Under the pieces are notes generated by a model. The model had not been told where the DNA came from. It ran no database searches and worked only from the letters and a program-made list of their open reading frames with translations. A stretch of 64,000 bases of DNA from an uncultured Candidatus Saccharibacteria bacterium (GTDB lineage: Bacteria; Patescibacteriota; Minisyncoccia; Phycocordibacterales; Phycocordibacteraceae), in the NCBI GenBank assembly GCA_964402535.1, contig CAYOCH010000001.1:8286-72285 (forward strand). The letters run 5' to 3'. Below, piece after piece: positions 9,708-60,693 of this stretch. The position numbers and the translations under genes were made by a program. Position 1 is the stretch's first letter, and each line of letters starts with the position of its first letter.

Positions 9708-12366
9708 GATGCAGCGCTTTGGCGAGGTACTCGCCCGTGTGCGAACCCTTGGTGTCGGCGACCTCCTCTGGCGTCCCCTTCGCGACGACCTTGCCGCCGC
9801 CGACGCCGCCCTCGGGCCCGAAGTCGATAAGATAATCCGCGCTCTTGATCACGTCCAGGTTGTGCTCGATCACGACGACTGTGTTGCCGCGCGCGACGAG
9901 CTCTTGCAGGATCTCGATCAGCTTCTTCACGTCCTCGTAGTGAAGGCCGACCGTCGGCTCATCGAGGAGATAAATAGTCTTTAGCGCCATCGGGCGGTAG
10001 AGCTCCGAGGCGATCTTCACGCGCTGCGCCTCGCCGCCCGAGAGGGTGGTCGCGCTCTGGCCGAGCGTGAGGTACTCGAGCCCGGTCGCGTTCAAGCTCG
10101 CGAGCCGGTCTGCGATCGCCGGGATGTCGGCGAAGAACGCCTCCGCCTCCTCGATCGTCATCTGGAGCACCTCGTGGATGTTCTTGCCGCGATACGTCAC
10201 CTCGAGGGTCTCCTTCATGAATCGCTTGCCCTCGCAGATGTCGCAGGTCACGTAGACCGTCGGCAAGAAGTGCATCTCGACCGCGATCGAGCCGTTGCCC
10301 TGACAGGCCTCGCAGCGGCCACCTGCGACGTTGAAGGAGAAGCGACCCGGCTTCCATCCCCTTGCGCGCGCCTCGGGCGTGGCGGCGAAGAGGTCGCGGA
10401 TATGCGTGAACGCGCCGGTGTAGGTCGCCGGGTTAGAACGCGGCGTGCGGCCGATCGGCGACTGGTCGATCAAGACTGCGCGGCCGACGTACTCGGTGCC
10501 GGTCATCGAGGCGACATGCTCGAGCCCAGCACCAGAACGAGTTCGGTGCTGGGTAAACTTGGCCACAATATTCTTGTGCAGAATGTCGTAGAGGAAGGTC
10601 GACTTACCCGAGCCAGAGACGCCGGTGATGCACACGAGCTTGCCCAAAGGCACGTCGATATTCTGGTTCACGAGGTTGTGCAGCGTCGCGCCGCGCACCT
10701 TGATCGCGCCGCGCTCGCTTGTGCGGCGCGACTCGGGGATCGGGATCACTGTCTCGCCGCGCAGATACGCGAGCGTCTTCGATTCCGTCTCGTTCTTCTT
10801 CGCCATGAGCAATTCGTCGAGCCAGCCGTGCGCGACGACCTTGCCGCCGTGGATGCCGGCGCCCGGGCCGATGTCGACGATATAGTCGCCCGCATAGATC
10901 GTGTCCTCGTCGTGTTCGACGACGACGATCGTGTTGCCGAGCTCCTTCAGGGTGAGGAGCGTTGTGATGAGACGGTCGTTGTCGCGCTGGTGGAGACCGA
11001 TCGTCGGCTCGTCGAGCACGTAGAGCGCGCCCGTGAGCCCGCTGCCCAGCTGTGAAGCCAAACGTATCCGCTGTGCTTCGCCCCCAGAAAGAGTCGCGGC
11101 CGACCGATCAAGCGTGAGATAGTCGAGGCCGACGTTCAGCATGAAGGTGAGGCGGCTCTCGATCTCCTTCAAGATCGGCGCCGCGATGTCGAACTTCATC
11201 TCCGAGAGCTCAAGTGAGTCGACAAACTTCTTGGCGTCGCCGATCGACATCGAGGTGAAGTCGACGATGTTCTTGCCGAGCCCTTTCTCTTTGCTGCTCT
11301 TCAGGTACACCCGCAGCGCCTCCGGGCGCAGACGCTTGCCCTCGCAGACGGGGCACGGCGCTTCAGAGAAGAGCGACTCGGTGCCGAGCCCGTGACAGGC
11401 CGGACACGCACCGTAGGGCGAGTTGAAGGAGAAGAGCCGCGGCTCCACCTCGGGGAACGAAGCGCCGTCCTCGGGGCAGATGAACTTGGACGAGAGCGTC
11501 TCGACCGTGCCGTCGGCGTGACCGATCTTCACCAAGCCGTCCGCCTCCTTGAGCGCGAGCTCGAGCGCCTCGGAGAGGCGCTCGCGGGCTGCCTGCGTCG
11601 AGCGCGCGAACTCTGATACGTAGATCGAGTCGACGACCGCGTCGATCGAGTGCCGCTTGTTGCGGTCGAGCTCGATCTTCTCGCGCAGCGACTGCAGCTT
11701 GCCGTCGACGACGACGCGCTCGTAGCCCTTGCCGAGGAGGTCGTAGAGGAGCTGATAGTATTCGCCCTTGCGGCCGACAACGACCGGCGCATAAATCGTG
11801 ACCGCGCTCTTGTCGACCGCGACGCCCATGATCCTTCCGGCGTCAGGGCCTCCGGCCGTGCTAGTTCCTTTGCGCTTCGCCTCGACGCGCGCGAACACCA
11901 TCTTGATCATCTCTTCTTTGGAGAGGCGCACGATCGGCACGTCGTGATGGATGCAGTAGGGCTGGCCAGCACGCGCATAGAGGACACGCAGGTAGTCGTA
12001 AATCTCCGTCACGGTCGCGACCGTCGAGCGCGGATTATTGGAGCGGCTCTTCTGGTCTATCGATATTGCGGGCGAGAGGCCAGAAATTTCATCGACATCC
12101 GGCTTGGCCATCTGATTCAAAAACTGCCGCGCATACGCGGACAAGCTTTCTACGTATCGCCTTTGGCCTTCTGCGAAAATAGTGTCGAACGCGAGCGAGG
12201 ACTTCCCGCTCCCCGAGAGGCCGGTGATCACCGTCATCGCCCCGCGCGGCATCTGCACGTCGATGTTCTTCAAGTTATGCGTCCGGGCGCCTTTGACGTG
12301 CAGCCAGTCAGACCCATGGCGGTGCCCATGGGCTTCATGTGCTTGCTTACTGCTCTTTTTAGTCAT
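9679..12366 (-). CDS. uvrA: Excinuclease ABC subunit A
   Basis: 895 aa with two ABC ATPase modules and zinc-finger CxxC pairs; conserved throughout. Confidence 0.95.
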
Positions 12367-12680
12367 GGATATGGGAACTCCTGCCCGTGGCGGGACAGGT
12401 ACGGCTTGACTATACCATAACGAGTACTACAATTGAATTGAGCTTAGGCTCGGTTTTATTAGCTTAGTCCGGCCAATATGGCAGTACTCTTGCTAGAAAA
12501 ATTGAGCCCTGTTCTTCCAGCTGCATTTTGACTATCTGCATCGAATCCCTGAACAAGGTTCTTCCGATCCAGATCTAATTCCCGAGTCAATGACAACTTG
12601 CAGTTAGAATTAAGTTACGTCTTGTCATGACGTGACCGAAGTAAGAATCTCGGGTGTTCTTGCAGGACAGTGGGCTCAAT

Positions 12681-12712
12681 GCGAACCGCCTACCGGCGGT
12701 TCGGCGTTTTTA
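12681..12712 (+). terminator. Intrinsic terminator-like hairpin (CGAACCGCC-TACC-GGCGGTTCG) plus T5, plus-strand polarity
   Basis: Perfect 9-bp stem followed by GCGTTTTTA on the plus strand, yet no annotated plus-strand gene upstream. Confidence 0.5.
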
Positions 12713-13513
12713 TCATATTTGCATCGAGTCTTGAACTTCGTAAGTCTCTGCGGTCAGTATCAGCTCTATAGAACGCGCCCAAAGAAGATATATGTTACTT
12801 AGTGCAGCATTATGATCAAGAGGTGTTGGGAAGAGTGTGTGTATTTGCTGAACTAATCCGGTTCTATTTTCTGCCGAAATCGCGTAATCAATCGAGCCGC
12901 TTGGATTGGGGTCATTCGTTGGATGCTCAATGATATATTTAATAATCTGCAGTATCTTCGACAGATCGTCTTGAAGCGTTTTATCATCCGCCGCGAATGA
13001 AGCCATCTGGGTCTGGAAAACACGAACGGCTTGGACGTCCTGATTTTGAATAGCAGAGGAATACGAACTTCGCATTTGGTTCACATCTTGAAGTTCCTTA
13101 GTTATGTCTGCCCACAGCAGTGTCGCCGTCGCGCTGATTGCTTTATCGCTGTCATTGAGATAGGGCTGCAAACTACTGCTAGCGTTCTGCAAATGTGTCG
13201 CCGATTCATTTAACGCAGTCAGTATCACGACGTCTGACTGCGATTCTCCGAATGTTGCTTGCGCCTCGGAATAGGTTTTAGTTTTCCCATATAGCTCTGA
13301 AAGGGCAACAAGAAAAGAGTATATATAGTCGCTTGAATGCTGAGAATATTTACTATCATCCGTATTTGATGCGACGGAAGCATTAGTGGTATTTGCAGCT
13401 ACACTGTCGCCTGTGATAGGAGGGCTAGCGACGGAATGAATTCCCCATGCGATAGCTACAATCAATACGAGAACGACAACCGGGAAGAGTGTCGACTGTT
13501 CTGACGGCTTCAT
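12713..13513 (-). CDS. Hypothetical secreted/membrane-anchored Ser/Thr/Asn-rich protein (low-GC island)
   Basis: 266 aa, N-terminal TM helix; about 45% GC versus about 65% in flanking genes; no recognisable domain. Confidence 0.5.
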   Translation of the reverse strand: MKPSEQSTLFPVVVLVLIVAIAWGIHSVASPPITGDSVAANTTNASVASNTDDSKYSQHSSDYIYSFLVALSELYGKTKTYSEAQATFGESQSDVVILTALNESATHLQNASSSLQPYLNDSDKAISATATLLWADITKELQDVNQMRSSYSSAIQNQDVQAVRVFQTQMASFAADDKTLQDDLSKILQIIKYIIEHPTNDPNPSGSIDYAISAENRTGLVQQIHTLFPTPLDHNAALSNIYLLWARSIELILTAETYEVQDSMQI

Positions 13514-13544
13514 TAATACATAGTTTTCACCTAGTGCGCTACTG

Positions 13545-15587
<2,043 letters not shown>

Positions 15588-17416: not shown

Positions 17417-17725
17417 CTACGGCGCGCGGAACGCCTTGAACCGCTTCACCTCCTCGTCGACAGCGGCCTTGGCGAGCGCCTCGTGATCCGGCACCTCCAT
17501 GTCGAGGAACGCCTGGAGCGCAGCAGAGTCTCCTGCCTCGGCGAGTTTGCCGAACGCCTCACGCTTGTCCTCGGCGAGCTTGCCGACCACGGCCAGGGTC
17601 GCAGCCTTGAGCGCCACTTCGCCGAACTGGGCGATGAGTGGTTTTTGTTCTTCGGGCGTGAGTTCAGAGAGGCCGAGATCGGCGGCGATGAGCGCGGTGA
17701 GTTGGTCGTCTGGCATGGGTGTCAT
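17417..17725 (-). CDS. Hypothetical protein
   Basis: 103 aa after trimming to MTPMPDD; helical and acidic; no domain recognised. Confidence 0.4.
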   Translation of the reverse strand: MTPMPDDQLTALIAADLGLSELTPEEQKPLIAQFGEVALKAATLAVVGKLAEDKREAFGKLAEAGDSAALQAFLDMEVPDHEALAKAAVDEEVKRFKAFRAP

Positions 17726-17735
17726 CTTAGCATGG

Positions 17736-20090
17736 TTAGCGGATAAGCCGCGCGAAGTCGTCGAGCTCGGGCGGCTTCGCAAATGCGGAGAAGAAGCTCG
17801 TGATGCCCGTGTTCTTGATCGGCGCACCAGAGATGAGTCGGCCGTCGACGACCCCCCACGCGACTCGATATTTGCCGGAGTCGTCCGCCGCGTAGATCAC
17901 CTCGTTCGGATGCGTCGTGAGATATTTCGTCATCACCTCAAGGCGCGCTTCGGCTGTACCGCCGAACGCGAAGACCTTGGTCCCTGCCGAATCGATATAG
18001 AGATGCGTCTCTTTGACCGGCACGTCAAGACCGTAGTTGTTGCGGACGACATCGGCCGCCTGCTCATAGGAGCCCGAGTGGATCAGGTTGCCTGAGCCGT
18101 CCCTGATCGCGTTGCCAGAGCCGTCATGCACGACCGGCGCCTCTGGTGCGAGAGCAGGCGCCGGGGTCGGCACGTTCGCGGCGTTGACTGCCGCCTCGTG
18201 CGCCTCTTGTGCTGCCGTGAGATCGTTGGTCTCGACTGACGGTGGCGGCTGCGCCTCGATATGCGCATCCTCTGGTACGGGCGCGCTCGGAACCGGCGCT
18301 TCGATATGCGGCGCGCCTGACAGCTTCATCCCCTCTGCTGCGTTCACGATGTCGCCGTGCGCCGCGTCAGAGAAATGCAGCGCGCCGTCTGCACCGATCG
18401 AGAGATGCGCACTCTTGTCGATCACGACGCTCCCGCCCTCGCCGAAGAACTTGTGATCCATCGCGAGCCGATGAATCACGCCGTTGATCTTCTCTGGATG
18501 CGCTTTAGCATCAAATAGCCTCTCAATATCACTGTTTGCTTGCATCCCCGCTGGCGGCTGATCAGGCAGCTGCTTGATCAAGTCCTTCAGCATACCCTCG
18601 TAGCCGTGTGACGAAGCGCCGACTGACACGACCGGCGCTTCTGCGATCGGTGCTGGTGCAGCCACCGCAGGAGCCGCCTCAGCTGCCGGAGCCGCGGTTG
18701 CTGCTGCCTGCGGCACCTCCGGCGGTGCTGGCGGCGGCGTCGCATCGGGCACTGACGATGCGTGTGGTGCTAGCGTTGGCGCTTCGCTTGTCTGTGATGC
18801 CATGGGTGCAGCCGCATGGTGACCCAACTTGTCACCAAGCCATTCGCGGACATGCGCCGCCCAGTCCGACTGGCTCACTTCTCTGATCAACTCGCTCATC
18901 GCAAGCGTCATGCCTGCTGAAAAGAGTATCGCCTTTACCATCGCCTTCTCTTTCGCATGCGTTCCGCCCTTTTCGAGCTCGCTCTTCTCAAACTTCAGAA
19001 ACGCTGTCGAAAGTCCGGCGACGCGCTGCGCTGCGACGCCGGTGAGACATGCAAACGCTGCCGGGAGTGACGCGCCGGAGGCGATACCAGCGCCGACACC
19101 GAGCGTGAGTCCGACTGCGATCTTTGTCTTCCATCCCATCTTGTTGTATTTCTCCCCAAGCCGACGAAATCCGCTTTCGACCTTACCCATCTTGGCAAGA
19201 CCAGCATCGAGTTCTTGTGAGCGCACCGCAAGCATCTCTCCAGGAGTCGCGGGTTCCTTCTCCTGCTTCGTCTCCTTCTCTGCATCTGCCTTCGCCGTCG
19301 CCTCGGCAACAAGCCGCTGCAATTCTTCTTGTGCCTCCTTGCGCGTCATCTCCTCGCTCTTCCGCCAGACTGCCGGCCCTTCCGCATTCGCCTTATCAAT
19401 ATCGAATGTCGGCGTTTGCCCCGCCGACTCCTGTGTTGGCAGAGTTGCTGGTTCCGATTTCGCCGGCGCTTGCCGCGCGTCGAGGCGCGCTTGCCCCTGC
19501 GCTATCGCGCGATTGAGCGCACTGCTCTTCGGGTCGTTGATCGATTCACCTTTTTTGAGAGCCTCAGTATTGTCTGCCGTTCTTTCTGCAACCTGCTGCT
19601 GTGCCTCTTGCTGCAAGCTCGCCTTGAGCGCCTCTACATCCGCGCCCGTTTCCAATCCGGCATCAAGGTCGATATCGACATGCTGTTCTTGTCCTGCCGG
19701 CGATAGCGCATCTATGTTCTGAAGGGTGTCCGAAATGACCTGTTCTCGCTCCTCTGGCGTAAATCTGGTCTGCTCTTTTTCTGCCGCAGCTGCCTCCGCG
19801 TAGACGCGCTCGCGGCGTACTGAGTTCAGATCTTCGACCTGCCTCGTCATCGCGTTTTCAATCCTGTCTTTGCTCTTGGCTGCTTTGGCCTTCGGATACG
19901 CTCGGGCGAGCTTAGCGACACGATCGAACATCTCGTTCGCACCCTTCCATGCCTTGCCCTCGAATTCACCGGGATCCTCGCCCGCAAGCTTCAGGCGCTT
20001 CCCCATCGCTGAATACCCCTTCTTTGCTTCTTCAAAAGAGGCCTTCGGATCGAACGGTTTCGCGCTGTCGTCGGGGGGATATTCAGCCAT
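17736..20090 (-). CDS. Large hypothetical membrane protein (coiled-coil N-terminus, 2 TM, Pro/Ala-rich linker, C-terminal globular domain)
   Basis: 784 aa; 5 nt downstream of the ATPase gene on the same strand (operon). Confidence 0.55.
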   Translation of the reverse strand: MAEYPPDDSAKPFDPKASFEEAKKGYSAMGKRLKLAGEDPGEFEGKAWKGANEMFDRVAKLARAYPKAKAAKSKDRIENAMTRQVEDLNSVRRERVYAEAAAAEKEQTRFTPEEREQVISDTLQNIDALSPAGQEQHVDIDLDAGLETGADVEALKASLQQEAQQQVAERTADNTEALKKGESINDPKSSALNRAIAQGQARLDARQAPAKSEPATLPTQESAGQTPTFDIDKANAEGPAVWRKSEEMTRKEAQEELQRLVAEATAKADAEKETKQEKEPATPGEMLAVRSQELDAGLAKMGKVESGFRRLGEKYNKMGWKTKIAVGLTLGVGAGIASGASLPAAFACLTGVAAQRVAGLSTAFLKFEKSELEKGGTHAKEKAMVKAILFSAGMTLAMSELIREVSQSDWAAHVREWLGDKLGHHAAAPMASQTSEAPTLAPHASSVPDATPPPAPPEVPQAAATAAPAAEAAPAVAAPAPIAEAPVVSVGASSHGYEGMLKDLIKQLPDQPPAGMQANSDIERLFDAKAHPEKINGVIHRLAMDHKFFGEGGSVVIDKSAHLSIGADGALHFSDAAHGDIVNAAEGMKLSGAPHIEAPVPSAPVPEDAHIEAQPPPSVETNDLTAAQEAHEAAVNAANVPTPAPALAPEAPVVHDGSGNAIRDGSGNLIHSGSYEQAADVVRNNYGLDVPVKETHLYIDSAGTKVFAFGGTAEARLEVMTKYLTTHPNEVIYAADDSGKYRVAWGVVDGRLISGAPIKNTGITSFFSAFAKPPELDDFARLIR

Positions 20091-20094
20091 AGCC

Positions 20095-22899
20095 TTATCG
20101 CGAGAGGTAGCGCTCCCGAATCATGTTCTCTACCGTAGCACGGTCGCGGCCGTAGGTGAGGGAGGAGAGCTGGATAAGGTCGTTCACCTGCTCGTGATTC
20201 AGTGCCGGCAGATCGGGCGTGCGCAGGTCGAAGGGCTGCTGCGGTACGCCCTGCGAGAGGATCTTCATGTATGCATTGCGGTTCTCGATATTCACGAAGT
20301 CGAGGGCGACGAAGACGGGCGCGAACTGCTTGGCGAAGAACTCGGCATCCTCCTCCCCGACGCGGAAGACCGCCATGTTCCCCACGTTGCCGAAGACTGC
20401 GTCGCGCGTCTTCTCCTCGATCTGGCTCAAGAATTGGTGCGCGACCGTCAAGGAGAGCTTGTACTTGCGCGCCTCCGAAAGGATGCCCGGGATCGAGTCG
20501 GTCGTCACGTTCTGGAACTCGTCGATATACAGATAGAACGGCGGATACGCCGCGCGCGGATTGTCAGCGCGCGAGAGCGCGGCCATGAAGAGCTTGCCGA
20601 CGATGATGAGGCCGAGGAGGTTCGCGTTCTTCTCGCCCAAGCGCCCCTTCGAGAGGTTGATGAGCAGGATCTTCTTGGTATCCATCACCTCGCGGAATTT
20701 GAAAGAGGACTCCTGCTGCCCCACGATCGGGCGGATGAAGTCGTTCGCCGTGAAGTCGTCGAACTTGTTCGTGATATAGGGCACGATATTCTCCAAGGCC
20801 GCGTCACCGCCGGCCTTCGTCGCGATGTCTGTCCAGAACTGGTTCACGATCGGGTTGAGGCTCTTCGCGAGCTTCATGCGGCGGTACTCGCTGTTCGAGA
20901 GCACGCGCGCTATGTCGAGGATCGTCGAGCCGCTCGAAGGATCCTCCATCACGAGCTGCGTCGCATTACGGAAGTATTGCTCGAACGCGGGACCCATCGA
21001 CTCGGGCACGTCGCCATAGAGCCGCTTGAAGATCATCAGGAGCTCGTTGACGATGAACGTCTTCTGCTCCGGCCGCGAAAGATCGTATTCGAGGAAGTTG
21101 AGCGAGAAGGGGCGCGAGAGATCTGCCGGATCGAAGTAGATCACGTCCTTGTAGCGCTCGGGCGGGATCGCCGCGAGGATGTCGAGGATATCGGTGCCAT
21201 GCGGGTCGATAAAGCAGCAGCCCTCGCCCGCATTGATGTCCTGAATGATCATCGACTTCATCAGCCCGGTTTTGCCCGTGCCCGTCTGGCCGATCACATA
21301 GAGGTGCCGCAGGCGATCCTCGCTCGTGAGATAGATCGGCGTTTCTTGTCCGCGGTAGGAGTTGATGCCGAGAAGCGCGCCTGATTGAGGGAGGTTCATG
21401 GGTGCCGCGGCGTGCGTAAATCGCGCCTGCTTCAGGTGCGGCGAGCTCGCGATACCCGCTGGCGGGAAGTGATAGAGCGTCGTGAGCTCGCGCAGCGATA
21501 AGGGAAGCGCCTCTGCCGCAGGGACGCGGAATGAGAAGTCCTCGAACAACGCTTGCGCGCTTCGGCCTTCGATGCGTTTGAAGTCGAGCCGGTTCCCTTG
21601 CGTGTTACCGAACTGGTTGAATCCGGCCTCGAGCTCGCTCAAGACCTGCCCGGCCTTGCGCTCATCGGCAGAGGACGCGACAAGCCGGATCGTCGCGCCG
21701 ACGATCGGCGTCGCGATCTTCTTCTCGACCTCTTGGATGTAACTCTTGTTCGCTTCGGCTTGGCGCGTCTCGGCCTCCTTCGCCTTCTCGACATCCTTGG
21801 GCTTGCTCGAAAAGAGCCGCTTGCTGAAGTCGCGTGCAAGCTCGCCAAACGCCGTCTCGGGCGTGGTGAAGGCGGCTTGGCGCTTCTCCCCTTTTCGCAG
21901 CGCCTGGAGGATCTTGCTGTAGTGGCGCACGTGCCGATCGCCGCGCGGCTCGATGATGAGCTGTATCGCGGCACCCTCGCCCTTGTGCTCGATCTTGGCG
22001 AACGCGTTCGTGATCGCGTTAATCGGGTCGTAGTCGAACTCCGGGTACTCCTTCAAGGGGAGCGCTGGATTCTCGGCCAAGGTCGCGACCGACGCGAGCG
22101 AGGCACCCTTGGGAGCGAAGATGTTGTAGTCCAAGGGCTGCGGGACCAGGTGTGCGTCCGGGAAGATCGCGAGGAGCTGCTTCTCGAAGAGCGCTGCCTT
22201 GCCGTTCGGCACTGCCGCATAGAACTGGAGCTCGGGCGAGTTCGCCGGCACAGCGAGCTCGAGCGCGAAGTAGGGCGGCTCGTCGCCCTGTGCATCGCCG
22301 ACCGAGAGCAACCCGGCATAGAACTGCTCCATGCCGGAGATGAGCTCCTTCAAGGTCTTCTGTCGCGCGCCCTGCTCTTGCACCTTCGGCGCGGGTAGCG
22401 CGATCTCGTAGAGCGTCATCTTGAGCGCGCGGAATCGGGGCGCCTTCTCGTCGGCCCCGGGCACCACGAGGCCGGCGGCGATGTAGCGCACCAGGTAGCG
22501 GTGGAAGTCGTCTGCGACCTCGGGGTCGCCCATCTTCTCGACGATCGCGAGCGCATTCTTGATCCCATGCTCCTGCATCGCCTGTTGCAGGCTCGCGATC
22601 ACGCGCTCGTCGTCGCCAAGGGCGAGATCAGAGAGGATAGCCTCGGCCTCGCTCTTCTTGGTCTTCTCGCTGATGCGATACTCGCGGGCGAGCACCTTAT
22701 CGGGCGCGTCGGCATGCTCCTTGACCTGCTCCGAGATGATGCGCACGTGCTCGAACGCGCTTGGCGACTTGCCCCTGCCCGCCAGCTCCGCCTCTTTCTT
22801 GGCCACTTGCTCGCGCAGGTAGGCCAATTCCGCTTCAGGCGTGGACAACGTCGGTGCCGATTCCATGTGATATCTAGTATACTGCACGCGAATGCTCAA
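20095..22899 (-). CDS. FtsK/HerA/TraD-VirD4-like P-loop ATPase (type IV secretion/conjugation coupling-protein-like)
   Basis: 934 aa; Walker A VIGQTGTGKTGLMK, Walker B YLYIDEFQNV, downstream TVAHQ motif; N-terminal about 450 aa lacks TM helices. Confidence 0.6.
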   Translation of the reverse strand: MSIRVQYTRYHMESAPTLSTPEAELAYLREQVAKKEAELAGRGKSPSAFEHVRIISEQVKEHADAPDKVLAREYRISEKTKKSEAEAILSDLALGDDERVIASLQQAMQEHGIKNALAIVEKMGDPEVADDFHRYLVRYIAAGLVVPGADEKAPRFRALKMTLYEIALPAPKVQEQGARQKTLKELISGMEQFYAGLLSVGDAQGDEPPYFALELAVPANSPELQFYAAVPNGKAALFEKQLLAIFPDAHLVPQPLDYNIFAPKGASLASVATLAENPALPLKEYPEFDYDPINAITNAFAKIEHKGEGAAIQLIIEPRGDRHVRHYSKILQALRKGEKRQAAFTTPETAFGELARDFSKRLFSSKPKDVEKAKEAETRQAEANKSYIQEVEKKIATPIVGATIRLVASSADERKAGQVLSELEAGFNQFGNTQGNRLDFKRIEGRSAQALFEDFSFRVPAAEALPLSLRELTTLYHFPPAGIASSPHLKQARFTHAAAPMNLPQSGALLGINSYRGQETPIYLTSEDRLRHLYVIGQTGTGKTGLMKSMIIQDINAGEGCCFIDPHGTDILDILAAIPPERYKDVIYFDPADLSRPFSLNFLEYDLSRPEQKTFIVNELLMIFKRLYGDVPESMGPAFEQYFRNATQLVMEDPSSGSTILDIARVLSNSEYRRMKLAKSLNPIVNQFWTDIATKAGGDAALENIVPYITNKFDDFTANDFIRPIVGQQESSFKFREVMDTKKILLINLSKGRLGEKNANLLGLIIVGKLFMAALSRADNPRAAYPPFYLYIDEFQNVTTDSIPGILSEARKYKLSLTVAHQFLSQIEEKTRDAVFGNVGNMAVFRVGEEDAEFFAKQFAPVFVALDFVNIENRNAYMKILSQGVPQQPFDLRTPDLPALNHEQVNDLIQLSSLTYGRDRATVENMIRERYLSR

Positions 22900-26118: not shown

Positions 26119-26148
26119 CGGCCGCCCCTCGGGGCGGCCGCTTTGTTT
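26119..26148 (+). terminator. Intrinsic terminator (CGGCCGCCCC-TC-GGGGCGGCCG plus CTTTGTTT)
   Basis: Perfect 10-bp GC stem plus T-rich tail immediately after the NUDIX stop. Confidence 0.75.
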
Positions 26149-27253
26149 ACTGGTACTGGATGTAAATTGGTGACGGATCGAGGTTAAGCACCTCGGTTGT
26201 CGTGAGGAGGCCGGTCGATGGCGGTTTGACGTCGTTCTTATAGAAGAGCTTCACGCCGGTGAACTGCACGGGCTCGTCAGCGATCACGCGCGCGTAGGTG
26301 TTCTTCTTCTTCGCCTGCGAGCCCCAGCCGTCCATGTCCATCACGATCTGCACCTCGGGGAGCGGAGTGATGTCCCGGTAGTTCGTAACCATCTCCTCAG
26401 TGAACCGGTGCACCACGAGGACCTTTGGCGGCAGCTTATTGTCGCGCACGAGCTGCGCCAGATAACGTGCCGCAAAATTGATATCCGCTGCGTCGAAGGT
26501 GCCGATCATGCGCCCGGGCGCCTCGCCGTACTTCATCGAGAACTCCGGATCGATCGCGAGATGCACATCCGGCAGCTTGAGATACTTCTCGAGCAATGGA
26601 AGCTCGTCCGCGAGCGTGCTCTTCCCCACCTGCACGTCAATGAAGAGGAGCCCGTTTATCTTCCGCGCCATCTCGAGCGCATGATCGATCTGGTCGTCCG
26701 GCATGCGGAGGATGTACTTGCCCTCTCTGCCGGCGGTCGCCTGCGCGACGACCGCGATGTACTGGATCGCGGGGATGGTCGGCGTCGTCGGATCAGCCTT
26801 CGCCCACTGCTCCGTCGAGCTCGCGAGCATCGAGATGACCTGCTCCTCGGGATATTCGCCCAAGATGCCCATGCCTTTCGAATAGAAGTTCCCGTAATAG
26901 GCGACGATGCGCTTGAAGGGCAGGATCGCCCCCACCTCCGGGTACGCAGTCGAGACCGGCCACGGGTGGCCGGGCATATACACGGTTGAGGAAGCGGTCG
27001 AGATCGGCAGCGTGGGTGGCGTTGAACTCGCGGTAGTCGAGGTCGCCGTCGAGGTAGCGATGGTGATATGCGCGAGCGCAAGCATCCGCGCGTTATAGTC
27101 AGCCTTGTCGAGAGTCGGGAGCGGGATGAATCTTTCCGGTGAATTCGCCGCCTCGCTCAAATACTCGCTCGCGACGAATCCCGAGAACCCGAGGAGATAC
27201 ACGAGGCCGAGTATGACGACGACAATCAACGTCACGCGGACCTTCGTGTTCAT
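26147..27253 (-). CDS. Hypothetical secreted protein (N-terminal TM anchor, Thr/Ser-rich linker, globular domain)
   Basis: Start trimmed to MNTKVRV; no confident domain assignment. Confidence 0.45.
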   Translation of the reverse strand: MNTKVRVTLIVVVILGLVYLLGFSGFVASEYLSEAANSPERFIPLPTLDKADYNARMLALAHITIATSTATSTTASSTPPTLPISTASSTVYMPGHPWPVSTAYPEVGAILPFKRIVAYYGNFYSKGMGILGEYPEEQVISMLASSTEQWAKADPTTPTIPAIQYIAVVAQATAGREGKYILRMPDDQIDHALEMARKINGLLFIDVQVGKSTLADELPLLEKYLKLPDVHLAIDPEFSMKYGEAPGRMIGTFDAADINFAARYLAQLVRDNKLPPKVLVVHRFTEEMVTNYRDITPLPEVQIVMDMDGWGSQAKKKNTYARVIADEPVQFTGVKLFYKNDVKPPSTGLLTTTEVLNLDPSPIYIQYQ

Positions 27254-27289
27254 GATGCCCCTATAGTAGCCCATGCGGCCGCCCTGCCG

Positions 27290-28471
27290 CTAGTCGCCCG
27301 AGTCGCGCTCACTGCTGCCCCCGTCCTTCTGGCCGTTCGAGTCAGTCTTCGACTTGTGCTTCGACTGATCAGACTGTCTGTCGTGAGAGTCCGTCTGCTC
27401 GGTACTCAACTGGAGCCCTTGCTGCAGCGATGTGTCGGCCGCCTTCGCCGCGCTCTCAGAGTCGAGGAGCGACGAGAACGCCTTCTGCGCGTCGCCCGAA
27501 TGTTGCTCGGACTGCGCGTTCTTGAGAGCGTCCATCGCCTGCTGCAGCGACTCGACCGAGCTGCCGACGATCTCGCGCTGCACCGAGGAGCTCGCGGGCG
27601 TCGTCGTCGAGAAGTCGCGGATCGTGTTCGAGGCGTTCGCAATGATCTGCTGCACCGCCTGCACGCGCGCGTCGAACTGCTGCTGCGCATCAGTGTCGCC
27701 GTAACCGCGCGAGCGTACGGGCGCGCCCTCACGCAGCGGCGGCGTTGTCGAGCCGCTCGTGCTCGCGAGCGGCGCCGCAGCGCTCCAGTACACCTGTGCG
27801 GCGTTCTCACGCGCCGCGTGCGCGGCCTCAGCGCTCGCGCCGACCGCGTCCTGGAGCGACGCGACGTCAGAGGCGAGCGAGCTCGTGGCCGCGCCGCCGA
27901 TCACCGAGAGGATCTGCGCATGCGCGTTCACCCCCGCCTCGAAGTCGACGGCAGCGTTCACGAGCGCGACCGTGGGAGTCGTGGATGCCGCCTTCTGCAC
28001 TATCGTATTAAAAGTCTCTGCACTTTTCTGAAAATTGGTCTGGAGCGTCTGCACGTCGGCGATCGTGAGGCGCCCCTGCGCCGCCAGTGTTTCTGCTTCT
28101 TGGAGACGCCGCAGCGCGACCTGCGCCTCCCAGCGCGCCTGTGGTACCGCGCCGAAGGTCATCGCGCTCGTCGCCGGCTCCATGACGTAGAGCTTGACCG
28201 GGTAGAGCAGGTCGCCCGGCAAGGCGCCCTCTGAGGCATACGCCGCCGAGCCGCCCGTGAGCACCACGAGCAAGAGCGCGGCGATCGCGTACCTTGAAGA
28301 GAAGCGCGAGACGTAGACCCGCCACGGCGAGACGATGAGCGGCGGGTGCGCCTCCATGTGCGCAGAGAGGCGCGCGAATACCGCCGCCTTCTCCGCCGGA
28401 GAGAGCCGGATCTTCTTCAATCCCGCTATGCCTTTCTGTAGGGTTTCGTCAGTCATGTTTGGCTTCATCAT
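27290..28471 (-). CDS. Putative anti-sigma factor (membrane-spanning, immediately downstream of the ECF sigma gene, 23-nt overlap)
   Basis: Single central TM helix, cytoplasmic N-terminal domain, long Ala/Gln-rich extracytoplasmic part; gene order sigma then anti-sigma. Confidence 0.5.
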   Translation of the reverse strand: MMKPNMTDETLQKGIAGLKKIRLSPAEKAAVFARLSAHMEAHPPLIVSPWRVYVSRFSSRYAIAALLLVVLTGGSAAYASEGALPGDLLYPVKLYVMEPATSAMTFGAVPQARWEAQVALRRLQEAETLAAQGRLTIADVQTLQTNFQKSAETFNTIVQKAASTTPTVALVNAAVDFEAGVNAHAQILSVIGGAATSSLASDVASLQDAVGASAEAAHAARENAAQVYWSAAAPLASTSGSTTPPLREGAPVRSRGYGDTDAQQQFDARVQAVQQIIANASNTIRDFSTTTPASSSVQREIVGSSVESLQQAMDALKNAQSEQHSGDAQKAFSSLLDSESAAKAADTSLQQGLQLSTEQTDSHDRQSDQSKHKSKTDSNGQKDGGSSERDSGD

Positions 28472-28988
28472 AGCCTGCCACCTTGCGCAGCTGCTTCAGT
28501 CCGCGATGGAGCCGGACCGAGACCACGTTCACCGTGACGCCGAGGATCTGGGCGATCTCTTTGGGACGCAGGTCCTCGACGTAGCGCAGGTACACGGCTT
28601 GTTGATATGTCGCATCAAGGTCACGAATCTTACCGAGCAGTGCCCGCGCCTCGTGCGACATCTCGATCTGCGCCTTGCCGTCCTCGCTCTCCATAAACAC
28701 CTCGATGTCCGTCTCGGCCGCCTCGGCGAGGGCGTCGAGCGAGACCGCCTTCTTGCGGCGGTACCAGTCGATGATCCGGTTACGCGCGATCGTGAAGAGG
28801 AACGCCCTGCCCCGGTGCACCTCGACCCTCCCGGCGGCCACCACTTCCCAGAAGCTTAAGAACGACTCTTGCATGATGTCGAGCGCCACCTCCTTGTCGG
28901 AGGTTCGGAGAAGGCAAAAGCGATAGATCGAATCCGCTTCGTCGACATACATCTTTGCGAATTGTTTCTTCAAATCATCCGGGGCCAT
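28449..28988 (-). CDS. RNA polymerase sigma-70 factor, ECF subfamily
   Basis: Region 2 (FLFTIARNRIIDWYRRKK) and region 4 HTH (YLRYVEDLRPKEIAQILGVTVNVVSVRLHRG). Confidence 0.85.
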   Translation of the reverse strand: MAPDDLKKQFAKMYVDEADSIYRFCLLRTSDKEVALDIMQESFLSFWEVVAAGRVEVHRGRAFLFTIARNRIIDWYRRKKAVSLDALAEAAETDIEVFMESEDGKAQIEMSHEARALLGKIRDLDATYQQAVYLRYVEDLRPKEIAQILGVTVNVVSVRLHRGLKQLRKVAGYDEAKHD

Positions 28989-29139
28989 ACATGAAGACGT
29001 GCGGGAATGCCCTTTCTTACGCGTGCGGCTGTAAGAATGGGTCATTCATGACGTCTAGGGGTGTGTGAGCACTTCAGAAATATATCCGAACGGTACCAGA
29101 AACGATACCACCGATTCATTAGCAATTAATTAGCAGCAC

Positions 29140-55936: not shown

Positions 55937-56028
55937 TGTATAGCGACAGTATACTAGTCGCCTGGTTGTTTCAACTGTGACCTGTGCATAAATGGTAGAC
56001 GTACTCGGTCTTAGGCTATGCTTTCTGA

Positions 56029-56670
56029 ATGGGAAGACATGCAAACCACTTCGACCTGTCATGGACTCACGATCTCGCGTATGTTGTGGGACTCTTAACA
56101 AGCGACGGCAATCTGTCTCCCGATGGTAGACACATTAATCTTACCTCTCGCGACAAGGAACTTGTTGAATATGCTCGCACGATTCTGGGTCTTACAAACA
56201 AGATCGGCAAGAAGGGTCGAGGGGGTTCGTTAACCAAAGACTATTATGTGCTGCAGTTCGGCAGCATACAATTCTATTCCTTTTTGCTTAAGATTGGGCT
56301 GACACCTGCGAAGTCAAAGACGCTAGGGCCGCTTGCGATCCCTCAACATTATTTCTGCGATTTCGTTCGCGGCTGCATCGACGGAGATGGAAACATCAGT
56401 GAGGCCTTGCACCCTGAGAGTTCGCTTATCCAGCTCCGTTTGCGCATTTCATCGGCAAGCCCCGCGTTCTTACGATGGTTGTTGACTCAACTGCGGCGGC
56501 AGTGCGAGGTGCCTGGGGGCTGGATCTATTTAGACAAGAAGAAATCTGTGAGTATGTTATGTTTTGGCAAGAGAGATTCAATCGATATATTACGAAGGGC
56601 GTACGAATATAAATCAGCGTATTTTCTGAGACGAAAATATGCGATTGCTAGGAAATATCTGGGCGAGTAG
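56029..56670 (+). CDS. LAGLIDADG family homing endonuclease (two-motif, single-chain type), free-standing
   Basis: Motif 1 YVVGLLTSDGNL and motif 2 FVRGCIDGDGNI about 100 aa apart; about 47% GC versus about 65% genome. Confidence 0.7.
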   Translation: MGRHANHFDLSWTHDLAYVVGLLTSDGNLSPDGRHINLTSRDKELVEYARTILGLTNKIGKKGRGGSLTKDYYVLQFGSIQFYSFLLKIGLTPAKSKTLGPLAIPQHYFCDFVRGCIDGDGNISEALHPESSLIQLRLRISSASPAFLRWLLTQLRRQCEVPGGWIYLDKKKSVSMLCFGKRDSIDILRRAYEYKSAYFLRRKYAIARKYLGE

Positions 56671-56742
56671 CCGAATTGGTACAGGCGCATGGCTTAGGAC
56701 CATGTCTCGCAAGAGGTGAGGGTTCGAGTCCCTCCTCGCCCA
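56661..56742 (+). tRNA. tRNA-Leu(TAG)
   Basis: Type II tRNA: acceptor GGGCGAG/CTCGCCC, anticodon loop CTTAGGA, long variable arm, T-loop TTCGAGT. Confidence 0.75.
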
Positions 56743-56749
56743 CTTGAGC

Positions 56750-56777
56750 TTGACAAACACGTGTTTTCGTGTATTAT
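56750..56777 (+). promoter_or_regulatory. Sigma-70-type promoter TTGACA-16 bp-TATTAT for the SPFH/NfeD operon
   Basis: Consensus -35, 16-bp spacer containing ACACGTGT palindrome, good -10; strong GAAGGAG SD 9 nt before ATG at 56836. Confidence 0.6.
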
Positions 56778-56835
56778 AGATAGCTAGATAGCGGGCTCTT
56801 TCCGCTACCCATCAACTCACAGAAGGAGAAGTCCA

Positions 56836-58008
56836 ATGTTAGACACCGTGCTTTCGTGGATGATCATCGTGCTTTTTGGCATGATGGCCGTCTGTATCCC
56901 CTTCTTCCTGCAGCAACTCGGCGAAGCCAGCATTCTCTTCACTACCGTGAAAGAAGGTACGGCTAAGGCGATTGTTCGCGGAAAATCCTTCGAACGATTC
57001 ATCATGTCATTCGAGGGCCGTCACCTGAATGACCCCGGGAAACCCTGGTTCGACGCTCGCCTGACGAAATGGGAGGTGGTTTACCACGGCGATATTCGGG
57101 GAGAGCTTGGGAAGGATGCGCATTACGACAATCGCTGGTGGCCGACTCGCTCACTCGGTCTGTATTGGATCGGATGGCCGTGGTCACATAGCGTCTATGT
57201 CTACGCGTTCGAATGGAATGAAACGGCGACGGATCGCGAAGGCAAACAGGTCATACGTCCTCGTGCAGAAGCTACCGACTACGTCGTTATCGGCGACTTC
57301 ACGTATGCAATCAAGACCGATGCCGCTGAAACAGCGGATCGCCTGCCGACCGACGAGCTCACGCTAGTCACGGTAGCGATTCAGAACCCGTATCGCGCCC
57401 TGTTCAACGGCGAAGACTGGATGCGCCGTACCACGTCTGCAATCAACCGACTGATCCGTGATATTGTCGGAAGGAAGACATTCGCTGAACTCATATCTTC
57501 TGATCTCGGGTCATTTTCTGGAGATATAGCTCGTCTGAGCAGAGAATTGCCCGGGGATGATCCGCAATCTAAACAAGGCGGACTCGAGGGGCGTTACGGC
57601 GTAGAAATACGCACAGCGGATCTGCAGACTGTCACCCTCACGGGGAAAGCTCAGGAGCGGAACGAGGAAGCGGCCGCGAAACAATACGTCGCCACTCAGG
57701 ATGCCTTAGCAGCAAGTATCAAAGGGAAAGCAGAAGCGGACGTCGCTCGGATGAAAGGTGAACAAGAAGCTGTGGTTATCGCACTGAAAGGTGCGAGAGA
57801 AGCCGAGGCGCTTGATAAACGCCTCGAAGTCATTAAGCGCCATGGCAAAGTCGCGGTTCAACTTGCCGGCTACGATGCATTGCAGGAGTCGGCAAAAGGT
57901 GCCGGCAGCACGATCATCTGGGCTAACGACCCACTTGGTCCGCTTGCCAGCCTGTTCCCGCACGGTCACCGCCAGCAAACTCAACAGAAAGGAGCCAAAC
58001 AAGCATGA
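56836..58008 (+). CDS. SPFH/band-7 (stomatin/flotillin/HflK-like) domain protein
   Basis: N-terminal TM, SPFH core, C-terminal Ala/Glu/Lys-rich coiled coil typical of flotillin-like proteins. Confidence 0.75.
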   Translation: MLDTVLSWMIIVLFGMMAVCIPFFLQQLGEASILFTTVKEGTAKAIVRGKSFERFIMSFEGRHLNDPGKPWFDARLTKWEVVYHGDIRGELGKDAHYDNRWWPTRSLGLYWIGWPWSHSVYVYAFEWNETATDREGKQVIRPRAEATDYVVIGDFTYAIKTDAAETADRLPTDELTLVTVAIQNPYRALFNGEDWMRRTTSAINRLIRDIVGRKTFAELISSDLGSFSGDIARLSRELPGDDPQSKQGGLEGRYGVEIRTADLQTVTLTGKAQERNEEAAAKQYVATQDALAASIKGKAEADVARMKGEQEAVVIALKGAREAEALDKRLEVIKRHGKVAVQLAGYDALQESAKGAGSTIIWANDPLGPLASLFPHGHRQQTQQKGAKQA

Positions 58009-58838
58009 CTACTGAAGATGTATGGATCAAGATAGGCTTCATATTCGCTCTTGCGGTCTGCTGTGCTGGAATGCTCGTCGTGACGATGTTCCTACGTAGC
58101 GGCGGGGCACACGCCGGCAAGATGGCACGCAAGCAAGCCAATGAAGATGCGATGCGCGACCAGAAACCGCGTACTGAGCCTGAGCCAACGACAAGGCAGA
58201 AAAAGAGGTACGAGTGGTTCAAATGGATCACTTCGTACTTCCCGATTCTCGCCCTCGCAGTCGCTACAACATTCCTCGCGTACTACTGGCTGACGGCTGA
58301 TTCGCCATCAATTAACGCAGTATGGACGGCAGTCAGGAGAAATGGTCTCTGGATAATTCTCGGGCTCTCTGTCTTATGGCTCACGCCTATTTTTCTTCCA
58401 GCAGAAGAGGACGAGAAGAGCGAAAAGCGCCGAAAGGAACGCGCTAGCGAGGCACGAAACATCGCGTACGGACTCGCAGCTGCAATGTTCATCGTCCTGC
58501 CGATCGTGAACTTCTTCTGGGGTGAGACGTCAGCGGCGGCGAAGTCGGAGGCGCAATTGCCCTCGGCGAAGCTGCCCTTGGCGAGCGAGCCGCAGTCTAA
58601 GTGGCCGAAGCTGGCCATCCCTGCCGGAGGGGAGTCCGAGAGGATCCCCCTCCCCGTCGGCGGCATGCACGTGTCGGTCGCCGGCTGGAACATCAAGGTG
58701 CACAACGTCTTCAGCAATGGGACGGAATGCATCTCCGGTGCGGCTGGGTGCGGAGACGGGGACATCGTCTCTGTCTATGTGACCTCCGACTCAAGAGAGC
58801 CGATGGTAGTCGCATACGCATACGAACCCAAGAAGTGA
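58005..58838 (+). CDS. NfeD-like membrane protein (partner of SPFH protein)
   Basis: ATGA start/stop overlap with the SPFH gene; multi-TM N-terminus and C-terminal beta-rich domain (GGMHVSVAGWNIKVHNV...DIVSVYVT), as in NfeD OB-fold. Confidence 0.5.
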   Translation: MTTEDVWIKIGFIFALAVCCAGMLVVTMFLRSGGAHAGKMARKQANEDAMRDQKPRTEPEPTTRQKKRYEWFKWITSYFPILALAVATTFLAYYWLTADSPSINAVWTAVRRNGLWIILGLSVLWLTPIFLPAEEDEKSEKRRKERASEARNIAYGLAAAMFIVLPIVNFFWGETSAAAKSEAQLPSAKLPLASEPQSKWPKLAIPAGGESERIPLPVGGMHVSVAGWNIKVHNVFSNGTECISGAAGCGDGDIVSVYVTSDSREPMVVAYAYEPKK

Positions 58839-59651: not shown

Positions 59652-60218
59652 CTAAATGCCAGAACCGGTGCTCACGGAACACTGCGCAACGTCAGACACG
59701 ACGCTACCGTCAGGACAATACACATTGTTTGTGACAGGTGCACTCGCACTGGTTTGAGATGCCCCAGTAGGCAACGTCGCACTGGTTTGTGTAGGTGGCG
59801 GAGGCGGGATCGAGGCGCCAGAACCGGTCTGCGACGCGGATTTGCCGATCGTCGGGAAGTCCGGCGCGTTGCCGCCAGGCCGCAGACCGAGCGTGGACAT
59901 GAAGAGGTTCACGAGCCCCCAGAGTGAGAGGATGACCACGAAGCCGATCACGCCCCAGAGCGTGAACTGACGTCCTGTCGAGCGGCTCGTTTCGTCATCT
60001 GCTCCCTTGATGAAGTAATTGTAGACACCCCAGATAAAGACGATGAAGGCGATCGCCATCACTACTGGCACCAAGACGAAGTTGATGAAGTAGATGATCT
60101 GGTCGGTGTAGGGCTTCTTGATCGCGTCGATGTTGATGCCTTGCTGCGCTGCTGCGGCAAACGGCAGAGCGAACGCTGCTGCAAGCGATGAGAGGCGGAG
60201 GAGTCTTTTCATGGTCAA
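59652..60218 (-). CDS. Two-TM pilin-like small protein, paralog 3 (Pro/Thr/Ser-rich C-terminal tail)
   Basis: 188 aa; KGADDETSRSTGRQFTLWGVIGFVVILSLWGLVNLF; tail IPPPPPTQTSATLPTGASQTSAS. Confidence 0.65.
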   Translation of the reverse strand: MTMKRLLRLSSLAAAFALPFAAAAQQGINIDAIKKPYTDQIIYFINFVLVPVVMAIAFIVFIWGVYNYFIKGADDETSRSTGRQFTLWGVIGFVVILSLWGLVNLFMSTLGLRPGGNAPDFPTIGKSASQTGSGASIPPPPPTQTSATLPTGASQTSASAPVTNNVYCPDGSVVSDVAQCSVSTGSGI

Positions 60219-60225
60219 GATCAGA

Positions 60226-60693
60226 TTAGTAGTTCGGCGGCTGGATGTACGGCTGCGTCTGCCCTGTCCCCGTGGTCGGAGGTGGCGGTGGCGGCGTGCT
60301 CTGTCCGCTGCTGCCCGAAGGATTACCGGTACCGTAGACCGGAGCGACTGCCGGACCGAAGGGCGAGATCGAGGTCGGCGTCGGCGGCGCGTAGTAACCC
60401 GCGAGACCGAAGGTGTTCGCCACGACGTTCACGAGCCCCCAGATCGAGACCATGACTGCAAAGGCCACGAGCCCCCAGAGGATCAGGTGATGACCCTCCT
60501 TGACCTTTTCCGGATCACCGTAGGAGAAGATGTATGAGCGCGCGATCCCGTAGAGGAAGACGATGAACGCGACCGCGAAGAGGACAGGGACCAAGACCGA
60601 GTTTATGATATACAGGATATTCTGTGCCACGAGACAGATCGTATTCGCACAATAGTTCCCCACCGTAACGCCGAGGCCGAATGAGATATTCAT
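60226..60693 (-). CDS. Two-TM pilin-like small protein, paralog 4 (poly-Pro tail)
   Basis: 155 aa; YGDPEKVKEGHHLILWGLVAFAVMVSIWGLVNVV; tail STPPPPPPTTGTGQTQPYIQPPNY. Confidence 0.65.
   Translation of the reverse strand: MNISFGLGVTVGNYCANTICLVAQNILYIINSVLVPVLFAVAFIVFLYGIARSYIFSYGDPEKVKEGHHLILWGLVAFAVMVSIWGLVNVVANTFGLAGYYAPPTPTSISPFGPAVAPVYGTGNPSGSSGQSTPPPPPPTTGTGQTQPYIQPPNY

Follow-up and report, generated by a model that had tools for sequence, protein, structure and literature searches.

The 64-kb stretch of DNA analyzed here (the window, from contig CAYOCH010000001.1; window coordinates count from its own first nucleotide) carries on its minus strand a gene for a VirD4-like ATPase, followed by genes for a 784-amino acid (aa) membrane protein and a small, helical DUF5663-like protein. 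We propose that this locus is a chromosomal membrane-motor module, specific to Patescibacteria and derived from a type IV coupling protein (T4CP) of monoderm type, with the other two gene products as accessories, and we regard the case for this reading as evenly poised. That the motor of the module actually couples to a type IV secretion system (T4SS) is a more tentative proposition, a real possibility somewhat short of an even chance. From the sequence, the three genes appear to form an operon. The ATPase coding sequence (20095..22866, minus strand) specifies 923 aa plus stop, its partner (17736..20090, minus strand; 784 aa, ATG start) is a fast-evolving putative envelope protein, and the third gene (17417..17725, minus strand) encodes 102 aa, with tblastn matches in two related loci, L003 and L010, and a borderline match to Pfam DUF5663. 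Four nucleotides (20091-20094) separate the ATPase stop from the partner ATG, and the DUF5663 gene starts 10 nt past the partner stop in the same direction. A preliminary description of this DNA had proposed a two-gene operon with a 5-nt gap; both reading frames are indeed real and co-oriented on the minus strand, but the gap is 4 nt and the third gene had been overlooked. The ATPase open reading frame (ORF) reaches an upstream TTG at 22899 (934 aa, 20095-22899), but initiation at the ATG at 22866 is likelier, because database protein P0001 is a 100% match to the 923-aa form in both sequence and length and because alignments with homologues begin at residue 1-2 of that form.

The motor of the ATPase is assigned to the TrwB/VirD4 (T4CP) type by sequence profiles and a structural model. 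It spans residues ~495-923 (20098..21384, minus strand), with a Walker A motif GQTGTGKT at residues 526-533 (21268..21291, minus strand) within the region VIGQTGTGKTGLMK (residues 524-537), a Walker B motif YIDEFQN at residues 780-786 (20509..20529, minus strand), and TVAHQ at residues 807-811. Residues G526, G529, G531, and K532 are invariant in alignments of 31 diverse sequences and of 123 sequences, as are D782, E783, E798, R800, K801, and Q811, the last four of which line up with the GRK...Q motif of TrwB. Because the catalytic residues are invariant, the ATPase is presumably enzymatically active. Among Pfam models, TraG-D_C scores 28.2 bits against a cut-off of 22, DUF87 falls exactly at its cut-off and over 52 residues only, TrwB_AAD_bind (PF10412) is sub-threshold (15.8 versus 20.5 bits), and FtsK_SpoIIIE gives no match; PF10412 is precomputed in many relatives that are 45-54% identical, and relatives also carry PF02534 (T4SS-DNA_transf). 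NCBIfam matches are to TraD, TrbC, and a CD1115 VirD4-like family, all far below equivalog cut-offs. A profile search of PDB sequences placed TrwB (4e-7) and DotL (9e-7) on top, with Walker A, Walker B, and GRK...Q aligned. The AlphaFold2 (AF2) model of the full-length ATPase (pLDDT 84.3) matches TrwB in Foldseek with a target-normalized template modeling score (TMt) of 0.63-0.66 over ~420 columns, structure 8dol is also among its matches, and residues ~600-730 are predicted to form an all-helical insert between Walker A and Walker B, like the all-alpha domain of T4CPs. The ATPase had originally been described as TraD/VirD4-type from its Walker A, Walker B, and TVAHQ motifs; the motifs are present, and Pfam, the PDB profile, and Foldseek agree on a T4CP.

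Might the protein instead be a housekeeping FtsK/SpoIIIE translocase or a terminase-like packaging ATPase? Marginal PHROG matches of ~35-40 residues around the P-loop, to a terminase large subunit (4e-4) and to an FtsK/SpoIIIE-like family (2e-3), point in that direction, but no FtsK_SpoIIIE or terminase family of Pfam or NCBIfam matches, the best matches in both sequence and structure are T4CPs, and the ATPase has no N-terminus with four transmembrane (TM) helices, no gamma domain, and no nuclease domain. No phage genes lie nearby. This identity is effectively ruled out by Pfam, NCBIfam, the PDB profile, and Foldseek. The preliminary description had named such an identity, combined with missing linkage to pilin-like genes, as what would overturn its reading. 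One half applies, in that the linkage is indeed missing (see below), yet the ATPase is neither an FtsK nor a terminase.

The N-terminal 450 aa, previously called unannotatable, resolve into a fused former gene (residues 10-126, the N-module) and Pfam domain DUF8128 (residues ~145-470; 21457..22434, minus strand; PF26449, precomputed on homologues). To the AF2 model of residues 140-492 (pLDDT 88.5, pTM 0.87), the sole significant Foldseek matches in the PDB are nine TrwK/VirB4 chains (E 4e-5 to 2e-3, probability ~1, query-normalized score TMq 0.40-0.43), and the matches below these are noise. Target ranges were not printed, and the matched region is taken to be the N-terminal part of VirB4 because the query has no P-loop. 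DUF8128 thus probably has a fold like that of the VirB4 N-terminal domain, at modest similarity. We found no literature on DUF8128 by that name.

This resemblance raises the alternative that the whole ATPase is a divergent VirB4, since it has the size (~800-900 aa) and the N-terminal domain expected of one, and the short forms of the family resemble VirB3-VirB4 fusions in their arrangement of TM helix, N-terminal domain, and motor. The complete model finds full-length TrwK/VirB4 first in Foldseek (E 3e-12, ~900 columns; TM-score ~0.3, root-mean-square deviation [rmsd] ~16 A), and DUF8128 alone matches VirB4 chains exclusively. We nevertheless consider a VirB4 identity very unlikely: there is no AAA_10 or CagE_TrbE_VirB Pfam match, TrwB gives a closer superposition of the motor (TMt 0.65) than VirB4 does, and no VirB3/VirB6/VirB8-type genes are found among the neighbors of the ATPase. 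A separate canonical VirB4 is reported for Patescibacteria generally (PMC12102498). In conjugation clusters of Bacillus and of actinomycetes, the closest relatives outside the Candidate Phyla Radiation (CPR) take the place of the coupling protein, next to relaxases. In an ICEBs1/Tn916-like operon of B. subtilis and Shouchella plasmids, the homologue comes first and is followed by a Replic_Relax relaxase, TcpC, TcpE, and VirB4, and on an Embleya plasmid the order is PrgI, an ATP-binding protein that is VirB4-like by position, the homologue, a relaxase, and NlpC/P60. When the CPR profile was aligned by hhalign with the 886-aa TM-less "DUF87" protein of the B. subtilis plasmid, the probability was 100 (E 9e-52, 653 columns across DUF8128 and motor), whereas against the VirB4 of the same plasmid (AAA_10 3e-116) it was 3.7. 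The family thus occupies the coupling slot, coexists there with a VirB4, and represents a T4CP lineage that possesses a VirB4-like N-terminal domain.

Besides this domain, the ATPase includes what was formerly a neighboring gene. The N-module (residues 10-126; 22489..22839, minus strand), all-helical in the AF2 model, is matched at E 2e-8 by a hidden Markov model (HMM) of a ~141-aa protein that is encoded directly upstream of short-type ATPases. We refer to ATPases of ~760-880 aa with a separate N-module as short-type, and to those with a fused N-module as long-type. Neighborhood counts were taken over 81 CPR loci, and the N-module lies within the ATPase ORF in ~41 of them and in a separate upstream ORF on the same strand in ~23. 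Such gene fusion and fission is classical evidence that the N-module and ATPase products work together. A single N-terminal TM helix stands directly before DUF8128 in 30 of 33 short-type orthologues, whereas none of 42 long-type orthologues has a TM helix in the first 220 residues; the window ATPase reaches a maximum of 1.57 over 19-residue Kyte-Doolittle windows, none attaining 1.6, so no TM helix is predicted. The Embleya homologue has an N-terminal TM helix and the Bacillus plasmid homologues do not. Judged from these sequences, the TM-less state of the fused ATPase is derived and coincides with the N-module fusion. The earlier statement that the ATPase lacks TM helices is therefore true of the window copy, as a state specific to the long type. 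T4CPs without TM helices that rely on membrane anchors are a recognized subclass, exemplified by TraJ of plasmid pIP501, whose proposed membrane anchor is TraI (PMC7434980, PMC13037476).

The candidate anchor in the window is the 784-aa partner. Its N-terminal 310 residues are rich in A/E/K/R/Q, and its hydrophobic segments lie at residues 324-360 and 383-402. Residues 315-402 (18885..19121, minus strand) comprise a juxtamembrane motif YNKMGWKTKI, a Gly/Ala-rich TM hairpin, and a third hydrophobic helix, and are followed by an Ala/Pro-rich spacer at residues 410-500 (18591..18863, minus strand; A 29.7%, P 16.5%) and a presumed extracytoplasmic region (17739..18590, minus strand) with an "SSHGYEGMLK" mid domain and a C-terminal domain of pattern hG..h....Y.D..G...hhGG...R. 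No Pfam, NCBIfam, PADLOC, or PHROG family matches the partner, and the PDB profile search gave insignificant helical matches alone. A search of a 5.8-billion-protein database returned the partner itself and one weak match, its Ala/Pro low-complexity words having probably saturated the word filter. Homologues were recovered via synteny instead. The syntenic 877-aa protein of L003 is 30% identical to the partner over 568 residues (E 1e-47), whereas the ATPases of the same pair are 81% identical; further homologues were found in L005 and L010 by tblastn and in L006 by HMM, and the large proteins of L009 and L077 have a partner-like architecture. The mid-domain and C-terminal motifs recur in L003, L005, L006, L009, L010, and L077. 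By sequence alone, the partner looks like a clade-specific, dispensable, hypervariable insertion. A further sign of rapid remodeling of the partner linker comes from L074 (10330-12084), where the 584-aa protein downstream of a short-type ATPase has, instead of the Ala/Pro spacer, roughly four repeats of ~36 aa in tandem (EEWSEKDEMFERYDGRGQKNQEEEKQ).

The accessory genes recur beyond the immediate relatives of the window. Pfam DUF5663 scores 23.5 bits against the third gene product, just under its cut-off of 23.7, with E 8e-5 and 79 of 84 profile positions covered, and by tblastn the product is 69% identical to L003 15426-15758 and 63% identical to L010. A DUF5663-like ORF is found on the same strand within 3.2 kb of the ATPase at 16 of the 81 loci, and a large protein with central TM segments is detected by HMM near the ATPase at 13. 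Two gene orders can be discerned. In the Kaiser/Adler type (the window, L003, L005, L006, L009, L010, L032, and L077, with L044 and L074 assigned by position) the fused ATPase is followed by the large mid-TM protein and DUF5663, and in the Moran type (L053, L055, L068, L082, and L083) a large mid-TM protein of 730-1022 aa is followed by DUF5663, a 141-aa N-module, and the ATPase. The large proteins of both orders have a common juxtamembrane motif (EKYNKMGWKTKI, EQYNALPITKKV, KKYNELPPKVRI, EKYQKWPWQKKL) that precedes a Gly/Ala-rich TM hairpin; the pattern Y[NKQ]x[LMW]..K[IVL] plus hairpin is present in the window partner, L003, L032, L053, L055, L068, L082, and L083. That one set of genes should reappear in two arrangements in distant lineages speaks for a functional link among them. 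Linkage of the ATPase with a large membrane protein, the co-occurrence that the preliminary description had asked about, thus does recur in other lineages, but in a minority of the 81 loci. The central hydrophobic segments and Pro/Ala spacer of the partner were found as first described; its pairing with the ATPase is not obligatory.

The ATPase itself is widespread and conserved. A HMMER search of 1.84 billion 50%-identity cluster representatives retrieved 5,195 clusters at E <= 1e-30. With one genome per GTDB species there are more than 600 ATPase loci, the best 80 of which are all Patescibacteria and cover Kaiser-, Taylor-, Nomura-, Zambryski-, Adler-, Niyogi-, Vogel-, Azam-, Moran-, Falkow-, and Komeilibacteria. 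The top homologues, more than 100 among the matches listed, have 78-83% identity and are assigned to Candidatus Kaiserbacteria, Paceibacterota, Minisyncoccia, or Patescibacteria. The source organism of the window is itself a Ca. Kaiserbacteria (Patescibacteria). Labels of "Saccharibacteria," "Bdellovibrionales," or "Gammaproteobacteria" on some loci from TPA_asm metagenome-assembled genomes were treated as unreliable; synteny there is of the Kaiserbacteria type. The window ATPase is 81% identical to that of L003, 74% to L005, and 70% to L010, and in the same loci the values are 82-86% for UvrB, 73-77% for TGT, and 55-67% for FKBP, which indicates that purifying selection acts on the ATPase family as strongly as on UvrB. 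The Kaiserbacteria-type gene order is Zip, a holin-like 4TM protein, a divergent DedA/VTT gene, the ATPase, a variable position, FKBP, TGT, and UvrB. In the Nomura/Taylor type, whose neighbors were identified by eye from cluster sequences, the ATPase is flanked upstream by the end of the ribosomal-protein operon (S5, L15, SecY, Adk) and downstream by Ndk, a beta-CASP RNase, and IF3/L35/L20. UvrB-like identity and conserved synteny indicate a vertically inherited core gene rather than a mobile element. Some family members are very long (P0178, P0182, P0194, and others, 1,100-2,000 aa): the 1,164-aa L038 protein has an N-terminal extension, and the 1,400-2,000-aa representatives have C-terminal extensions past the motor.

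Distant homologues on plasmids and in phages raise the question of whether the locus is a remnant of an integrated conjugative or other mobile element, or of a prophage. Plasmids of haloarchaea, Sulfolobus, and Streptomyces carry such homologues, as do Bacillus phages (SPO1 gp27.4 and phage G gp156; phrog_5156, function unknown, 5e-68). We give this origin very little credence, in that synteny is kept among related genomes, identity across species is 78-83%, there is no integrase, relaxase, or VirB4, GC content at third codon positions (GC3) in the ATPase frame is 0.85, a value typical for real genes in the window and for the host, and 2.9 million viral contigs hold just 16 relatives, which are confined to the motor domain at 24-41% identity. 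The GC3 of the partner is 0.66. Only 25 bp (22867-22891) lie between the divergent starts of the ATPase (22866, minus strand) and the DedA/VTT gene (22892, plus strand), a spacing kept at ~23 nt in L001 and L003, so that either both promoters are located within the adjoining coding sequences or the mRNAs are leaderless. No sigma-70-like site was found, and a promoter/terminator scan gave 0 promoter-like sites, with terminator-like sites not above shuffles.

What might tie this ATPase to a T4SS? The preliminary description had tied it to a pilin-like array. The array consists of two adjacent T4SS_pilin genes (PF18895, VirB2-like; 59652-60218 and 60226-60693, minus strand) with Pro/Ser/Thr-rich tails, but these lie 37 kb from the ATPase, and a pilin homologue is found near the ATPase at one of the 81 loci (L040), so this tie finds no support. 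No pilin motif of type IV (class III signal) turned up when such motifs were looked for, and the "pilins" are VirB2-like T4SS pilins. Nor is the suggested role in DNA uptake supported by any specific sign of uptake. Patescibacteria T4SSs are known to be peculiar in having pilin arrays (PMC12857230, PMC12102498), and the pilin region may be the edge of, or an outlier from, a Patescibacteria T4SS cluster. The ORFs around the pair (56836-58008 with a weak Band_7 match, 58005-58838, and 61482-62777) belong to no confident family. About 38 window ORFs scanned against Pfam gave no VirB4-, VirB6-, or VirB8-type family, and two plasmid VirB4s used as tblastn queries had no match in the window, which bears out the earlier statement that equivalents of these three proteins are missing from it. 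Orphan genes of this kind are common in the phylum: 5,713 VirD4-like T4CP homologues were counted in 2,918 Patescibacteria genomes, 148 of them near virB4, and the authors of that census wrote that exaptation of these homologues "cannot be ruled out" (PMC12102498). The ATPase locus matches this pattern, and the DUF8128 ATPase is a candidate member of the counted set.

Several observations weigh against the reading of the locus as a T4CP-derived module with two accessory proteins. No T4SS core gene is present in the window or at the 81 loci, with relaxase and VirB4 homologues absent from every one. The link among the ATPase, partner, and DUF5663 protein is one of gene neighborhood, and the resemblance of DUF8128 to the VirB4 N-terminal domain is modest (TM-score 0.43, rmsd 8.5-10 A). 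The partner is absent from L001, L002, and L007, where FKBP directly follows the ATPase, it is absent from most of the 81 loci, and all Nomurabacteria-type long ATPases, although TM-less, have no partner within +/-8 kb; because it is missing from close relatives and most loci, it cannot be a universal anchor. At loci without it, the partner may be encoded elsewhere or may not be universally required. An unrelated surface protein that had entered a permissive site would likewise account for its low GC3 and hypervariability. In S. epibionticum, the T4CP homologue is reportedly not essential though the T4SS is (PMC12102498), a point that applies if that homologue is of the DUF8128 type. In L001, a 34-aa ORF (12777-12881) stands at the position of the partner, and partner and DUF5663 appear to have been lost there as a block.

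These points lend some weight to exaptation independent of any T4SS, in which the ATPase would be a housekeeping translocase of DNA or protein, cytoplasmic or associated with the membrane and engaged for instance in chromosome handling, repair, or uptake, and the partner an unrelated, fast-evolving surface protein that shares its transcript. Conservation at housekeeping level, neighborhoods of UvrB/UvrA/TGT or of the ribosomal operon and Ndk, the lack of T4SS genes at 81 loci, and a partner dispensable in three close relatives are all consistent with this explanation, as is a weaker resemblance to HerA DNA translocases, and the census mentioned above leaves it open (PMC12102498). It is harder to reconcile with a large TM protein and DUF5663 beside the ATPase in two gene orders in distant lineages, which chance insertion would hardly produce, with the predicted TM helix that would anchor short-type orthologues in the membrane, or with the absence of an adjacent nuclease, NurA-like, or ComEC-type partner. 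On balance we consider exaptation unlikely, though an explanation of appreciable weight. Rather improbable, though still worth stating, is a further possibility, that N-module, DUF8128-T4CP motor, hypervariable envelope protein, and DUF5663 together make up a self-contained, Patescibacteria-specific, envelope-spanning machine independent of canonical T4SSs. In such a machine a hexameric motor of coupling-protein descent would power or gate transport, or serve as an energy transducer, via its own bitopic partner at the interface between epibiont and host.

How would a T4CP-derived module operate? On the cytoplasmic side of the membrane, the ATPase would act as a hexameric, ATP-driven translocase or would receive substrates. 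Its own N-terminal TM helix would have been the ancestral anchor, lost in the fused long type, and the fused ATPase might instead dock via the cytoplasmic helical N-terminal half of the 784-aa partner, for which TraJ/TraI of pIP501 offers a precedent. The TM hairpin, Ala/Pro stalk, and variable outer domains of the partner would then connect the motor to the cell surface. N-module and DUF5663 could serve as adaptors or as regulatory subunits; small helical proteins that partner with T4CPs are known, such as CagZ with Cagbeta. In the most speculative step, the motor would serve the chromosomal, relaxase-less T4SS of Patescibacteria, whose clusters lack a recognizable coupling protein. The essential T4SS of S. 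epibionticum, for example, has no recognizable coupling or relaxase proteins (PMC10633639).

Patescibacteria depend on host cells, and in the one genetically tractable species a T4SS without recognized coupling protein or relaxase is essential (PMC10633639). The orphan VirD4-like genes of the phylum, which number in the thousands, have been tallied but not dissected further (PMC12102498). That the ATPase class is annotated (DUF8128, and names of the kind "TraM recognition" or "T4SS DNA-binding domain") and that orphan CPR homologues of T4CPs have been counted was already known. To this the locus adds an architecture of VirB4-like N-terminal domain and T4CP motor, housekeeping-level conservation, a fusion that coincides with loss of the anchor, and a recurrent accessory set. 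In the literature we found no description of the VirB4-like DUF8128 fold, of the N-module fusion with TM loss, of the set of large protein and DUF5663, or of the rate contrast within the operon. The locus offers candidates for how CPR cells energize or gate transport to their hosts, and the ATPase could be viewed as a possible evolutionary intermediate between VirB4 and VirD4 ATPases. Were the self-contained machine real, it would constitute a minimal translocation system of a new kind, with conjugation as its origin.

Three other regions of the window deserve mention. A 266-aa ORF with an N-terminal TM helix (12713-13513, minus strand) has a GC3 of 0.43, against ~0.85 elsewhere, and no family match. 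It lies in a GC dip at 12001-14000 (region GC 0.50), immediately behind UvrB, at a place taken in L003 by a 260-aa protein with a weak DUF5666 match, and is probably another fast-evolving or acquired envelope protein. At 26147-29045 (minus strand), an ECF-type (extracytoplasmic function) sigma factor (28449-29045) precedes a DUF5667 protein of 393 aa and then a TM protein of 375 aa that belongs to no family, a possible sigma/anti-sigma envelope module of CPR-specific DUFs. A 213-aa ORF at 56029-56670 (plus strand; GC3 0.53, with GC 0.52 at 56001-58000) contains a segment, LAYVVGLLTSDGNL, that resembles a LAGLIDADG homing-endonuclease motif, by eye only.

Compared with known systems, both likenesses and clear differences can be discerned. 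The HerA/FtsK superfamily, including mad8 of the MADS system, has the same ASCE P-loop core, with DUF87 at the Pfam cut-off and mad8 of PADLOC at 6e-13, but the window ATPase has no HAS-barrel, NurA, or defense partner genes, and HerA ranks below T4CPs in both the PDB profile search and Foldseek. A HerA-NurA pair was rejected, as DUF87 matches only at cut-off over those 52 residues and no partner nuclease lies nearby, and a defense system was rejected because the mad8 match covers the motor only. TrwB of R388, VirD4, TraD, and DotL share with the window ATPase the P-loop motor, Walker A and B, GRK...Q, and the helical insert between Walker A and B. Unlike them, the window ATPase has no N-terminal domain of two TM helices; a ~130-aa helical module and ~330 aa of DUF8128 precede its motor, and it is chromosomal, very slowly evolving, and unlinked to relaxase or T4SS genes. 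VirB4/TrwK has a comparable two-domain layout, and its N-terminal domain is structurally nearest to DUF8128, but the window motor is not of VirB4 type (no AAA_10), and the family coexists with a true VirB4 in its conjugative relatives. The coupling-slot ATPases of Bacillus, Shouchella, and Embleya have the same DUF8128 plus motor architecture; those of Bacillus are TM-less like the window copy, and that of Embleya has one N-terminal TM helix like short-type CPR orthologues. They differ in being 25-29% identical, in having neither N-module, large partner, nor DUF5663, and in residing within complete conjugation clusters with relaxase, TcpC/TcpE, and VirB4. TraJ/TraI of pIP501 is likewise a coupling ATPase without TM domain encoded beside a membrane protein proposed as anchor, a comparison by gene layout and not by sequence relationship; anchors of that subclass are small membrane proteins (PMC7434980), whereas the candidate here, at 784 aa, combines an extended, presumably cytoplasmic helical part with an Ala/Pro stalk and outer domains. 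The layout of the partner is reminiscent of VirB10/TonB-type energy transducers, which span the envelope and have a cytoplasmic N-terminus, a membrane anchor, a spacer rich in Pro, and a globular domain at the C-terminus. The TM domain of the T4CP is in contact with VirB10 (PMC7434980). The analogy is one of layout, not of sequence or structure: the cytoplasmic part of the partner is far longer, and the organism is monoderm.

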